Below, in pieces: positions 4,433-13,400 of a DNA stretch of 64,000 nucleotides. The position numbers are program-made. Numbering within the stretch: the stretch's first letter is position 1; the number at the start of each line of letters is the position of its first letter. This DNA comes from Escherichia coli (GTDB taxonomy: Bacteria; Pseudomonadota; Gammaproteobacteria; Enterobacterales; Enterobacteriaceae), in the NCBI RefSeq assembly GCF_003018255.1, contig NZ_CP027440.1. The stretch is one strand, 5' to 3'.

Positions 4433-7400
4433 TAGACCGGATAAGAGGCGCCAGCATCGCATCCGGCAATAGCTCCCAGGCTACACCAGATCCGCCATGC
4501 TGGTTACTGGAAGCAGGTCACCAGACCCGGTTTATTTTTTATTAGCGTGATACTACAATCCTGCGCTCCAGTACCTTCGTCCATCCCACACTGTTGAGAG
4601 GACAAATAAGGAAAACTGGGTGAAGACGGCCATCCCAGTGAATTAAAAACAGTATGCAACAACTCTAATTCATTGTATGTCGGTGCATTTTCTATGCTGC
4701 CACACTGCCTTGCGATATCCCATTTACTGGCATCAATGATATGTGCAGAAGCCCAGTTTTCGTAGTTAATAATCGGTGAGGATACGGGATTAGCCCCGGA
4801 CGGCAATTCCGTCGTTAACAACGGTCGATGTAGCGATTTACTAGTCACCACTACCGTGTCTGCCATATGTCCCCAAAAGTGCGCCGATGAAACATTTGGG
4901 CTGGTTGGCACCGTAAAAATAGCATCCAGCGTGTCTGTCGCGGAAGCGTAATTAGCCAGAGTAACCGTCAGTGGCATTTTATAACCAGGGGTATTATCCT
5001 GGCGGAGCGTAAAACTTGCCGTCCCATCCGCGCCTGTCATGCCACTAATGGTATTACCGCTTTCACTCAGCGTAACAGCCGAACCTGATAACGGCTGAAC
5101 GACGAGATCGTCCATCGCCACTACATTGCCATACAACGTTGCCCCAGCGTTACGCGGCGATGCCTCACCACGTTTCAAAGTAAATTCAACATTCGGCACC
5201 GTATTCCCGGCGCTGTCTTTCACCGTCACGGTTACGGACATGGCTTCGCCTTTTTTCACTTTCGCCGCCTGAGTGGCTGCATCAAACGCTGTTGAGGTAA
5301 GTGTGACGCTGGAAACGGTTGAACGCGCGTTAGCCAGGCAAGGCTGAAATGATTTTGTTGAACCCGTATACAGCGTGCCATTTCTCAAATCAACCGACTG
5401 GTCTTTACCATCGGCGGATTTATCCTCTGCCCACCAGGTGTAATACGCAGGCCAGCCAGTTTCAGTGACAAACGTGTTATTCGGATAACGCGCAGACAAC
5501 GAACTTAAATCATTGAATAGTGGCTGCCTTGCTACTTCACAAGGGCTCACACTCGCATCTGATTTCTGTGTTGGGGTAAAGTACGGCCAGTCTTCATTAT
5601 TGTTATTGATCTTGCCGACGCCAGAAGTCGATGTCAGTTCACTCCACAATTTCGGGCGTTCAAATACCGCACCATTCACTGCCGTCAAGGTTGCTGGCAT
5701 ATGCCCCCAGTAGTTAGCCTTCGCAGAATCCGGGCTGGTCACTACCGTGAATATCAGGTCCTGATTAGCCGTAACCTGCGGATTTCGCGCCAATGAAGCT
5801 GTAAACGGCGTTACCAGACCGACGGTGTTATTTTGGGTAACGTTGAACGTTATCGTGCCATCACTGCCGGTGAAGCCGCTCCATGCCGACGTATTCTGGT
5901 TGAAGGAGATACGCGCCGATGTTGGGGTGACTTCATCTAAAATGAGATCATCTACGGTATTGGAGGATACAGAGATCCCTGAACGGCTTTTCGCCTGCAC
6001 GCGCTTGAGCGTAACACCTTCGCCGCCAACAGGATTACCATTGGCATCTTTGATCGTCACCACGATGGGAAGCATCTCACCTTTTTTCACAGATGACGTG
6101 GGGGTACCACCATTGCTGGCAGTTCGGCCCTCATCATAGGCAGTCGATGACAGCGTAAGGCTTGCTGGTGCCGAATGTGGCTGCGTCAGACAGAGCATTA
6201 AAGCGTATCCATTAATAGTCGTCGTCGATTGTCCCGTTTTCAAATTAATGACGCCGTAATACCACGTCAACGCGTCAGTGGTGCTCATTTCATAAGTCCA
6301 CCAATTTCCACTTCCGGCAGTTATAGGCAACCCCAAATCTGTCAGTATTGTCCCGCCTGGATGATCATTATATAGCCCCTGTAACTCATTGAGACGCGGC
6401 TGATACTCAACCGGGCAATCCGGCGTAACTTTATTGGTATAAAAAAGGTATGACCACGACTCATTATTATTACTTACCGAGGACCCCAAGGTCGCTTCTG
6501 CTGCCAGTAGCGGTCGTTTAAAGGTCACCCCCGCCCTACTGGTAAACGTGTCGGGCATATGACCCCAGTATTTTGCTTTCGGTGAGTTCGGACTGGTTAT
6601 CACAGTGAAAATAACATCCATCGTGGCACTTTTTGTGGTGTCGCGCATCAATGTTGCAGTGAGCGGAGTTGCCAGCCCATAAGTCTCGTTTTGCGTCACA
6701 TCAAAAGTCGCTTTACCATCACTTCCTGTCGTCAGAAGTGCCTGTGCCCCATTATTATAGAGTGACATGTTTACTCCGGCAGGGGTGACCGGCACGATAG
6801 TAAGATCATCATACGTAGAATCTAGCCTGTTTTTTGCACGATCCAACGCAGTCCCGCGTATGAGATTAAAGTTTGCGCCTGGCAACAGATTTCCTCCGCT
6901 ATCCCGCACAATCACCGTCATCCGGATCGCCGTACCTTTCGCCGCCGTTGCACTAGGGCGACCATCGTTGCTGGCCGTTTTCTCCGCATCCAGTGCCGTG
7001 GAGGTCATCTCTATAGAAGCTGCCACTGCATGAGGGTTTACCAGACAGGACACAAATGCCACGGTGTTTGATAATGCCCTGGAGCTTGATCCATTCGATA
7101 AATTAATAGACTGATCGTACCAGACGTTCGCGTAGGCAATTTTATCGTAAGCCCACCAGGTGTTAGTCAGCGGAAGGCCTAAATCGGTCCCTATCGCACC
7201 ATTAGGATGTTCACTGTATAACTCTTGAAATTCGCTTAATAACGGTTGATAAGGTTCGCCGCAGTCTGATTTGCTGACATCATTTTTTGCTGCCGTATTC
7301 AAAGAAAGCCATGATTCATTATTAGCCATGGTTGACTGCCCCGCTGGATGCTCGGCAGTAAGCAATGGCCGCTTAAAGGCAATTCCCGACCGGGTAGTAA

Positions 7401-10400: not shown

Positions 10401-13400
10401 GGGCGACCATCTCATTGCCCGAACAAGAAAGGTAGTTTTGCTTAAAGCCGGAATAGGTGTCGATGTTGCCCGTGGCCAGGTTCACCGACGCGTGCGACGT
10501 CTCTTCCACCGCACTAAGATACGCTTTTTGCAACGTTGGCCAGCCATATTCGGTGCCGATGACATTGGCTGGATGTGCGGCAAACAAACTGTGCAATGAG
10601 CTTTGGCTCGGAATATGACCTAAACCACACTCAGCCTGCATACTGCTATTCTGATCAAACAGCGCCCAGTCTTCGTTATTTTCCCGCACTGCTCCCAGTT
10701 CGTTGTCGGTTTCATCCGCCAGCCGTGGGCGTTTAAAGATATTATTCGCTTCAATAATGCCTAACATATGTCCCCACATCCGCGCTTTGTCGGAATCAGG
10801 GCTGGTGATCACCGTAAAAATAACGTCTTTCTCATCCGAGGCGGTAAAATCACTGCGCATTTTCGCGGTGATGTGTGTTTTCACCCCCACGCCGCCTGGC
10901 TGGGTCAGCGTCAGAGAGGCCTCTCCGTTAGCATCAGTGATCCCTTCATAGGTATGCGCGTCAACTTTGCGAACGTTACTGCCACCATCAATTTGTACCG
11001 GATGCGTCTCCCACGCAGCGTCAGTTTGATTCTTACGGTTAACACCGTCATCCAGATGCAGCGAAAAGTAGTAGTAAGCCAGCGGCTGATCGTTGTTCTT
11101 GCTATCGGTAATCGTCAGGCGTAAAGAAGCCTCTTCCCCCACCTTTACTTTCATCGCTTTTATCGTCGAATCATAACTGCCCGGCGTCAGTACCAGCTTC
11201 GGTTCAACATCGGGCGCTTCTTTATCGACACAGCTCACAATAAACGTCGTATCGTCCGGTTTTTGCGCTTCGCTGCGGTTCGAAACATCCGCCGCATGGT
11301 GCTGCCCGCTCATCCCCGCCAGTGATGACCAGTAGTAGTTACCCTGCATCGGCCAACCAGCCACATCCTGCACTGACGTTGGCACCACCGTCGCCAGCGC
11401 ACCGAACTGACGCATTCCGGGCAAAATGTCGCAATGTTTATCCGCACCACTCCAGGTAAAGGTGGACCAGGTTTCATTGTGATCGTTAACCGTACCGTCT
11501 TCATTATCGACTTCCGCCGCCAGTTTTGGTCGACTAAAAGTGTAATCACGGGCCTTCAGCGTATCGGGCATATGACCCCACATTGTGGCCTGCGGGACAT
11601 CCGGGCTGGTGAGGACGGTAAAGATCACTGCCGTTTCACTGGTCTGAGCAATACCCGCGAGGCTCGCGACCAACGGCGTTTTTACACCAGGGGCGTTGGC
11701 CTGGGTGACCGTAACCGTGGCAACACCATTCGCATCGGTAGTACCACGATATTCCGTCGCGGTGGTGGTTAATTCGGTCGTGCCCAGTTTTACCGGCGCA
11801 GTATTGTTCACTACACCCTGGCGGTTTTCAGCATCTTTGCGTTTGATAACAAAAGGAATATTCCCCACAACATTACCGACGCAATCTTTGGTGGTGACCG
11901 TTAACGTGATACTGCCGCCAACCGTCGTTTTCGCCGCACCGGAGGATTCGTCATAGCCCGCGGCGCTGACGGAAATAAGGTCACCCTGCGCGGGCGCAAT
12001 CTTCAGCGTCACTTTCTGATCGGCGAGGGTCAGAACACTTTCATAGGGATAGCCCGTCGAGGTAAGTAGATATAACAGCGGCATGGTCTGCTGGGGGTCT
12101 GGCTGCGCCCAGGCGATCAGCGAACGCCCGGCAAGGCCCTGTGCGCAAAATGAGCGATCTGCGACTGGCTGTGGGTCCAGTAAGGTGTCCGGCGTCGCGG
12201 CATCCGCCCAAACTAAAGATACTGTCGGTGGCGTTTGGTTTTCCCAACGTGGTGTGGCAATGATATCGCCTTCTCTGTCTTGCGGGTTGGTGACGAGCAA
12301 TTTAGAGACGCTAACATCCGCGCTGAATTCACTCGGTTTAGCGGTAAACGCTACCTCATGCGTCTTTGCAGGATCCAGAAAGACACTGCCCTGGTAGACG
12401 GGTATGCTGGCACTGTCGGCGGTGGGCACGGTACCGTTAAATTCGCCGACCGTATCTGAAGAGTCTTGCCATGCAGATTCTGCCCATGCCCCCCCAGGCA
12501 GCATTGCGCTTATCAGCAATGCGCAAAACACAAGGATTTTATTCAGGGTCAGGGACATGACAGAAACTCCACCGGTTGTTAAACGGACGCTTGTCGCATC
12601 AACATATTTTGCTTAATCCGGGATTAAGCAAAATATGCGGAAACAGCATTCCCTTGCGGGAATGCTGCTGAGTACGCGTTATTTGTGTTTGTAAATAATG
12701 TGAAGTTTGTACCCCTGTACCCCGTCGCCGTTGGTCGGGATGGTAAGAGCTTCTTTACCATCGCGCGCAGGGCCGTTAAGGTTGGTTCTGGCGTCTTCGT
12801 TGGTCGCAGGGATGACCAGATTGTTATTATCGAAGCTTGAGTTGACGATACCACCCGAGGTGCCGAGCTGTTGGCTGCTGCCAGAAAGTACCCAACGGAA
12901 GTCATAATTGGCGGTAACGTCAGCATCGGTATCCGCATCAAACTTGCCATTTTTGTTCTCATCCGAGTACAGTTTGGCCACGTAGGTTTTGCCAAGTTCG
13001 ATTGGCGTACTGCCGTTGATAAGGTTGATACTGGTACCATCAACAAAGATGGCGACTTTCAGGTTCTGGTTAACTACCGGCCCTGGCGCAACGTTGTCGC
13101 TGTCGCTTCCGCCGCCGCTGGCAGTGGAAATGTCATAAAGATGCAGCGCAGTCCCGACGTTTGGCGTACCGGTCTGCGTGGTCGGCGTAATTTCAATACC
13201 GATATAACGACCACGGTCGTCATCGGTAAGAGTGTAACTGGTCACCTTCGTTGCCAGCTCTTTCGGATCGCCCCCCTGAGCGTCCTTGTAGCTCATCCAG
13301 CGGATAGTATCGATAGTCTTTGCGTTATCGCCCAATCCCCCAAGATCCACGTCGCCTTCGGTATCACCAATTTCCCAACTTACGGTTAATTTATCACCCG

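Follow-up and report, generated by a model that had tools for sequence, protein, structure and literature searches.

The stretch of DNA analyzed here comprises 64,000 nucleotides (nt) of the Escherichia coli chromosome (contig NZ_CP027440.1 of RefSeq assembly GCF_003018255.1; hereafter the window), in which guaB, xseA, a ratA-like gene, sinI, sinH, a zinc-ribbon gene, der, and bamB follow each other in this order. The ratA-like gene is a single ATG-started open reading frame (ORF) of 2684 codons without internal stop, and its G+C content of 51.6% is ordinary for the window (52.5%). Its product is the E. coli RatA-like protein (RatA), encoded by the third gene of the sinH-sinI-ratA island ('ila', CS54-like). 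It matches the NCBIfam equivalog model NF011844 ('RatA-like protein') with 5883 bits (cutoff 3870), residues 1-2684 aligning with model positions 1-2683, and the equivalog models for Salmonella RatA and RatB reach 2012 and 2204 bits, which is under their cutoffs of 3700 and 4079. In RefSeq, a near-identical gene is labeled 'adhesion domain-containing protein'. RatA is thus already known: its family is catalogued, its domains are named, the structure of a homologue has been solved, and the pathogenicity islet has been described. Among E. coli, the island is overrepresented in extraintestinal pathogens, and work is under way to develop SinH into a vaccine antigen (PMC9937491; PMC12525524). No other protein encoded on the island comes close to RatA in size.

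Modular architecture of RatA

An earlier reading of the window, made from the sequence alone (the sequence-only reading), had described a giant protein of 2684 amino acids (aa) with nine diverged tandem modules, and had named self-alignment and the integrity of the reading frame as the points at which this description could fail. The ORF, the alignment, and the Pfam matches all agree with it: the self-alignment is periodic and the frame is intact. At the DNA level, the reverse-complement pattern of the WGHM codons, CATATGNCCCCA, occurs nine times, always within the ratA-like gene (4864, 5698, 6556, 7411, 8263, 9115, 9961, 10765, and 11569), which reproduces the period and the positions given earlier to within 2 nt. 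By chance, 0.02 occurrences are expected, and nine were reached in 0 of 100 shuffles. The WGHM residues lie at aa 327, 595, 863, 1145, 1429, 1713, 1998, 2284, and 2562, with a spacing of 268-286 aa.

If each unit is taken to end with its second Cys, the protein divides into nine modules of 259-288 aa, which can be aligned end to end and have 27 invariant columns, including F-T..TSP, A, WGHM, RP.L..E, E.W, C, P, G.P, and C. Together with the signal peptide (aa 1-26) and an N-terminal domain (N-domain, aa 27-187), the modules (aa 188-2684) account for the whole length of the protein. Identity between modules amounts to 25-39% at the protein and 38-50% at the nucleotide level, identical residues are encoded by a shared codon in only 27-49% of the cases, and the longest DNA repeats in the gene span 57-112 nt with 60-77% identity. 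The low DNA identity, the differing codons, and the shortness of the DNA repeats show that the modules are ancient repeats and not recent duplications, as had been concluded earlier from codon differences.

Each of the nine modules consists of a BIg21 domain (PF05688, formerly DUF823) followed by an InvE_AD 'adhesion domain' (PF05689, formerly DUF824), both matched at E<=0.001 and with best E values of 5e-27 and 3.6e-41, respectively. This corrects the sequence-only reading in two respects. The first segment had been called Big_1-like, a domain that was matched in 0 of 9 modules at E<=0.001 and only marginally in the Pfam search, and the Cys-containing segment, for which no name had been found, is InvE_AD. 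The modules have the two-domain fold of an immunoglobulin (Ig) domain and a C-type-lectin-like domain as in InvE (PDB 5N40). That the protein is a RatA-like protein with nine modules of this architecture can be regarded as practically certain.

The conserved Cys pair of the adhesion domain is 63-75 residues apart and is the counterpart of the disulfide that stabilizes the binding surface of intimin and invasin (PMC3008723), suggesting that every adhesion domain of RatA would hold one disulfide. Features of canonical Ca-dependent C-type lectins were not found: EPN and WND occur nowhere in RatA, there is no Lectin_C match in Pfam, and the only QPD (aa 152) lies in the N-domain, outside any adhesion domain. 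The earlier statement that the protein has a signal peptide but neither barrel, lipobox, nor LPXTG stands. LPXTG is absent from RatA, a lipobox is absent from the signal-peptide cleavage site (L-V-F before Cys12 fails the consensus), the sole lipobox-like match is internal (aa 440), and the inverse autotransporter (IAT) barrel model PF11924 has no match, with no stretch of residues left over for a barrel. Coordinates of these features and of the neighboring genes are compiled in Table 1.

Table 1. Features of the ratA-like gene, its upstream spacer, and the adjacent sin genes in the window.
Feature	Position	Strand	Residues	Description
ratA-like gene	4504..12558	minus	1-2684	2684 aa plus stop codon (4504-4506); ORF and full-length match to NCBIfam NF011844
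Sec signal peptide	12481..12558	minus	1-26	K in n-region, hydrophobic core, A-W-A at -3/-1; read from the sequence
N-box	12424..12480	minus	27-45	Mature N-terminal motif common to SinI
Rat-type N-terminal leader domain	11998..12480	minus	27-187	Beta-rich, un-named; in all barrel-less family members
Module 1	11221..11997	minus	188-446	BIg21 + InvE_AD; extra Cys226 in Ig domain
Module 2	10414..11220	minus	447-715	Alignment and Pfam
Module 3	9592..10413	minus	716-989	Alignment and Pfam
Module 4	8728..9591	minus	990-1277	Last module with clear positional orthologues across the family
Modules 5-8	5329..8727	minus	1278-2410	Hypervariable, exchangeable cassette
Module 9	4507..5328	minus	2411-2684	Terminal 'cap' module with four Cys; protein ends ...VTCFQ
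Two hairpins, sinI-ratA spacer	12604..12667	minus		12644-12667 followed by UUUCCGC, and 12604-12636; 7 loci
sinI	12679..13656	minus		325 aa, signal peptide, no barrel; NCBIfam partner_SinI 333 bits (cutoff 165)
sinH	13711..15918	minus		IAT barrel and short Ig-like passenger; NCBIfam inverse_SinH 1486 bits (cutoff 999)

Two side observations concern the borders of these genes. Between the convergent stops of ratA and xseA lies a sequence, GCCGGATGCGATGCTGGCGCCTCTTATCCGGTCTACG (4440-4480), that resembles a repetitive extragenic palindrome (REP) element. The mechanically called ORF of sinH begins with TTG and encodes 735 aa, and the RefSeq product in a 99.5% identical strain has 725 aa, which would place its start at about position 15888 of the window.

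Family relatives, allelic variation, and the WGHM motif

Family statistics are based on an exhaustive hidden Markov model (HMM) search of 1.84 billion representative proteins; word-indexed protein searches gave mostly fragments and were excluded from these statistics. The HMM search yielded 445 proteins at E<=1e-3 and 85 at E<=1e-30, which fall into two architectures. Single-module proteins carry one module at the very C-terminus of a long protein. Among eight such proteins tested, five have a complete N-terminal IAT region, two appear to be truncated IAT passengers, and one gave Rat-type matches only. The barrel-less 'Rat-like' proteins, in contrast, consist of a signal peptide, a conserved N-domain of ~160 aa, and an array of 1-10 modules reaching precisely to the C-terminus. 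Because the same module forms the tip of true IATs, RatA can be described as nine inverse-autotransporter tips in series without a barrel of their own.

Modules 1-4 are positional orthologues across the family, i.e. module 1 best matches module 1 of the homologues and so forth, with identities of 40-80% that exceed those between any modules within RatA. The later modules vary in number between homologues, and the last one belongs to a separate class with four Cys residues, the best matches of module 9 being the terminal modules of homologues.

Within E. coli, ratA is present in 1734 of 5426 complete genomes and occurs in three allele classes, with the alleles that were read encoding ~2680-2693 aa; class I, to which the window belongs, and class III have nine WGHM motifs each. 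Up to the end of module 4 and in module 9, DNA of class II is 95-100% identical to the window, but in modules 5-8 the identity is only 62-77%. As the breakpoints coincide with module borders, a cassette of four modules has been exchanged; modules 5-8 are a swapped cassette among E. coli alleles, which is a new observation. At the protein level, class III is 73-80% identical to the window in the N-terminal half and 50-58% in modules 5-8. The class II example, from E. coli 98232 (locus L012, 4501-12543), is annotated as a pseudogene: its length is similar, but translation meets an internal stop at codon 904. The adjoining sinH and sinI are intact.

Both across the family and between alleles, the segment from GWP to the last Cys is the least conserved part of the module (entropy of 3.22 bits vs. 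2.33-2.66 bits in the rest), and in modules 5-8 it is only 38-42% identical between alleles. This segment is likely the ligand-binding or antigenic face. The difference of 30-50% between common alleles in modules 5-8, together with the much more conserved N-terminal half, is relevant to the choice of antigens.

The WGHM motif had been called invariant, which is correct for the protein of the window and for a second E. coli allele (9 of 9 modules each) but not for the family. Among 188 modules taken from the exhaustive search, G and M are conserved to ~100%, W to 76-92% with Tyr as the alternative, and His to 90%, with Y, N, V, F, R, D, and A as replacements. In InvE the motif reads WGNM, with Asn in place of His, and the terminal modules of homologues have WGNM, WGRM, WGDM, or WGAM. 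In the model of a module, residues 153-155 (G-H-M) form a short strand that comes right behind the last, long strand of the Ig domain, on which FTV.TSP lies. This position and the lack of EPN/QPD-WND motifs suggest that WGHM has a packing role where the adhesion domain begins, just after the Ig-to-lectin junction, and is not an active site. An analogue for such a role is the rigid superdomain formed by D2-D3 of intimin (PMC7718877).

The alternative that the His is a metal or catalytic ligand had been raised by the sequence-only reading as a question to be tested; perhaps together with the invariant Glu and Asp residues, such a site would make the module an enzyme or a metal-dependent lectin. 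This alternative draws on the presence of His in all nine RatA modules and in most family modules as well as on the near-invariance of E175, E190, and D145. It has become highly improbable, because an obligate metal or catalytic role is difficult to reconcile with Asn in the solved homologue InvE and with N, R, D, or A in terminal modules; V, F, or Y are found at this position in further homologues. Moreover, no adhesion domain contains an EPN/QPD...WND motif for Ca or carbohydrate, and the flanking G and M surpass the His in conservation, as is typical of a packing motif.

Leader domain, N-box, and the proposed route to the surface

Searches of Pfam (up to E<=10) and of PDB sequences gave no match for the N-domain, and PHROGs contains nothing for either the N-domain or SinI. 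An AlphaFold2 (AF2) model is beta-rich with a predicted local distance difference test (pLDDT) score of ~90 after residue 20. Mature residues 1-14, which belong to the N-box, have a pLDDT of <50 in this monomer model although they are conserved; W4, G16, T17, and P19 of the N-box are invariant in 13 Rat proteins. Two Cys residues, Cys138 in the leader domain (FCAQ, nt 12145-12147) and Cys226 in the first Ig domain (KDCxG, nt 11881-11883), are likewise invariant in 13 of 13 Rat-like proteins and have no counterparts in later modules, so that an interdomain disulfide may connect them. In Yersinia, cargo proteins have the Rat-type N-domain in front of Big_1/Invasin_D3 instead of BIg21 and InvE_AD. 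Hence, the leader domain of ~160 aa is constant and the cargo behind it interchangeable, which is also a new observation.

The two genes upstream of ratA encode a barrel protein and a small exported partner. SinH has a Pfam IAT_beta match (aa 73-346) followed by a passenger of ~390 aa without Pfam match. The C-terminus of SinI resembles that of SinH, and SinI has a weak match to ZirU_fam (1e-7; 32 bits, cutoff 100). The mature N-termini of SinI and Rat cargo have a box in common, which is reported here for the first time and is not mentioned in the literature consulted. Its consensus is NGNLKSGQWQxVTxSTGTIQGTVPW in SinI, where it is present in 95 of 101 full-length proteins, and xLKSGxWQxLxxxTGAINGTxPxAD in Rat proteins; the box of SinI in the window is EESAWVDSGETNIFQGTIP, and its counterpart in RatA is the N-box. 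Elsewhere the motif is rare, with 7 matches in 134,390 residues. When profiles of the N-domain and SinI were compared with hhalign after removal of the signal peptides, an E value of 2.6e-5 and a probability of 75% were obtained, vs. E 0.07 for a reversed control. This comparison replaces one with E 1.3e-7 that had been inflated by the signal peptides.

The order IAT, SinI, N-domain cargo is found in every related locus long enough to be judged. These comprise three E. coli alleles, the Salmonella-type locus (sinH-sinI-ratA-ratB-shdA), the metagenomic loci L006 and L017, locus L014, the Yersinia massiliensis locus L018, and, at species level, nine loci of Citrobacter, Superficieibacter, and cryptic Escherichia that were found with a SinI DNA pattern. 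In the window and in all judged loci, the cargo gene lies immediately downstream of an IAT gene and a SinI-family gene, as in ZirTS-like systems. E. coli Rb-50 has two complete sinH-sinI-rat triads in tandem between der and xseA (L013, NZ_AP025682.1 1372035-1389615), the first of which encodes a two-module Rat protein of 784 aa and adjoins an IS4 remnant; accordingly, the triad duplicates as a unit. At L014 (2628-11086), an IAT gene and two SinI-family genes are followed by three one-module mini-Rats in a row, and at L018 (3572-8828, Yersinia massiliensis) an IAT gene and two SinI-family genes are followed by a small Rat-type N-domain cargo with Big_1/Invasin_D3.

One protein (P0050, 1616 aa, 16 contigs; L015 7001-16983 and L016) resembled a Rosetta-stone protein in which Rat modules are fused to the SinH barrel. 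In this protein, SinH residues 1 to ~520, with the barrel and the first Ig domains, are joined in frame to the middle of a module of the Rat array; a premature stop and an out-of-frame remainder of 1711 codons follow. The junctions are those of a deletion chimera. The ORF looks like a product of deletion and recombination and was not counted as evidence.

The sequence-only reading had found the route of RatA to the surface and its anchor unexplained, which was a fair point, but a hypothesis had already been published (PMC3008723; PMC4943183; PMC6714894). For the Yfr4 operon it was proposed that barrels translocate or anchor separately encoded passenger-like proteins (PMC3008723), and Rat-like proteins were proposed as substrates of SinH by analogy with ZirT-ZirS (PMC4943183). 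In E. coli, SinH is also named IatB, and the cargo hypothesis has been put forward for it (PMC6714894). For ZirS, dependence of secretion on ZirT has been shown experimentally (PMC2270342).

Alternatively, RatA could be a surface or secreted adhesin that leaves the periplasm without SinH, e.g. via a type II secretion system (T2SS), with synteny reflecting only co-regulation or later docking. Folded, disulfide-bonded domains would suit a T2SS, the lumen of IAT barrels is filled by their own linker, and InvL of Acinetobacter, a barrel-less invasin-like adhesin, is described as a T2SS substrate (PMC9245377). This route is nevertheless unlikely in view of the triad order, which is invariant in >15 loci from Escherichia, Salmonella-type, Citrobacter, Superficieibacter, and Yersinia, of the duplication of the triad as a unit in E. 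coli Rb-50, and of the N-box common to SinI and cargo.

The 120-nt spacer between sinI and ratA folds into two hairpins that are conserved in 7 divergent loci. This covarying double hairpin is a new observation: of its 27 pairs, 11 show compensatory changes, pairing is 97% vs. 38-50% in slid controls, and the covariation was reached in 0 of 500 shuffles. The inner arms of hairpin 2, UUUGCUUA...UAAGCAAA, show no sequence variation, and a short U-run comes after hairpin 1. No Rfam family corresponds to these intergenic hairpins, and scans for promoter and terminator consensus sequences were at or below shuffled expectation. Hairpin 1 and its U-run would fit partial termination after sinI, in agreement with the co-transcription of sinH with sinI, which a review attributes to Shea et al. 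in a statement that does not include ratA (PMC12525524). The hairpins are probably an attenuator or a stability element that sets the expression of ratA relative to sinH-sinI.

The same hairpin with its U-run and the wording of that review would also agree with a RatA protein that stays periplasmic or is barely made, because expression is curtailed by a terminator-like structure and the gene is undergoing decay or has a role other than adhesion; an allele with an internal stop and a rearranged chimeric locus would fit this as well. However, three allele classes, with up to 50% difference at the protein level, have retained an intact 8-kb ORF with nine modules, the gene is kept in about a third of the complete E. 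coli genomes, and maintenance of the hairpins by compensatory changes argues for regulated and not for absent expression. This explanation is therefore quite improbable, slightly more so than SinH-independent export.

The reading preferred here is that RatA depends on SinH. After Sec export and cleavage of the signal peptide, RatA would consist of the short N-box, the leader domain, and nine rigid two-domain modules, and DsbA-type oxidation in the periplasm would close one disulfide per adhesion domain. SinH would then recognize the N-box and the N-domain, which RatA has in common with SinI, and would translocate RatA and/or hold it at the surface, either in a two-partner-like arrangement or as a non-covalent passenger extension, as in ZirT-ZirS. 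At the surface, multivalent binding to host or bacterial surface ligands would be provided by the nine lectin-like domains, chiefly through the variable distal segments of these domains. A probability of roughly 60% is assigned to this full mechanistic reading, including the SinH dependence of RatA. Within it, we infer that the N-box and the leader domain are the element recognized by SinH, be it for translocation or for docking.

Several points weigh against SinH-dependent display. Surface exposure and SinH dependence of RatA are predictions by analogy, and both the disulfides and the role of WGHM in packing are deduced from conservation and secondary structure only. We know of no ligand even for InvE. 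The likeness between N-domain and SinI is short and modest, and comparison of the N-domain profile with single sequences of SinI and SinH gave no match. Box identity between SinI and cargo within a locus (0.43) is not clearly higher than that between loci (0.34, sd 0.10), and covariation of the two boxes is not significant. Some ratA alleles, such as that of strain 98232, are pseudogenes. Finally, solved IAT barrels are plugged by their own linker, as raised by Heinz et al.

A more general proposal is put forward tentatively and at somewhat less than even odds: SinH, SinI, and Rat proteins could constitute an IAT-based two-partner pathway with a modular cargo code. The N-box LKSGxWQ-x5-TGxIxGTxP and the leader of ~160 aa would be the signal that SinH reads for secretion or docking, the permitted passenger arrays would range from one to ten InvE-type tips or consist of Big_1/Invasin_D3, RatA would be the largest cargo, and exchange of the cassette of modules 5-8 among strains would vary the specificity for ligands or as antigens. 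If the N-box and leader couple barrel-less cargo to an IAT, this would answer the question, open since 2008-2016, of how other proteins can make use of a type Ve barrel that is plugged, and would provide a handle for surface display.

Comparison with known systems

Two-partner secretion (TPS) by FhaC/FhaB is similar to the system proposed here in that transporter and cargo are separate proteins, both depend on Sec, and the cargo has a conserved N-terminal element. In FhaC/FhaB, however, the transporter is of the Omp85/POTRA type and the cargo consists of a TPS domain and a beta-helix, whereas RatA has neither: the N-domain has no match to the haemagglutination activity domain that marks TpsA proteins (Pfam, E<=10).

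Compared with D2-D3 of intimin and D4-D5 of invasin, RatA has no Pfam match to Intimin_C or Invasin_D3, and the relationship is one of fold and not of sequence. In addition, intimin and invasin have the superdomain once, at the end of a barrel-anchored passenger, whereas RatA has nine modules. InvE of Yersinia pseudotuberculosis (PDB 5N40) has the RatA-type module with the motif WGNM but, unlike RatA, is a true IAT with a single tip module. Its lectin-like domain, studied by Sadana et al. 2017, reportedly lacks features for the binding of Ca/carbohydrate, Tir, or integrins, and is not known to have a ligand.

The Yfr4 operon of Yersinia frederiksenii (Tsai et al. 2010) encodes a 749-aa barrel protein followed by ORFs of 301, 292, and 432 aa, and thereby matches loci L014 and L018. 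Operons of this type have one-module or Big_1/Invasin_D3 cargo, in contrast to the nine modules of RatA. A similar arrangement is found in ZirT-ZirS-ZirU of Salmonella, where an IAT barrel is followed by small, Sec-exported, Ig-like proteins without a barrel; unlike in SinH-SinI-RatA, no Rat-type cargo has been described for it.

RatA and RatB of Salmonella enterica (CS54 island; NF011843/NF011842) resemble the E. coli protein in the leader domain, the array of BIg21 and InvE_AD domains, and the position downstream of sinH-sinI. The Salmonella family models have 1860 and 2435 residues, implying smaller arrays than the nine modules in E. coli, and E. coli possesses only one rat gene and lacks shdA, whereas the Salmonella-type locus has ratA, ratB, and shdA. 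The Salmonella-type Rat proteins that were read have 1845-1865 aa and six modules, the first four of which are positional orthologues of modules 1-4 of the E. coli protein.

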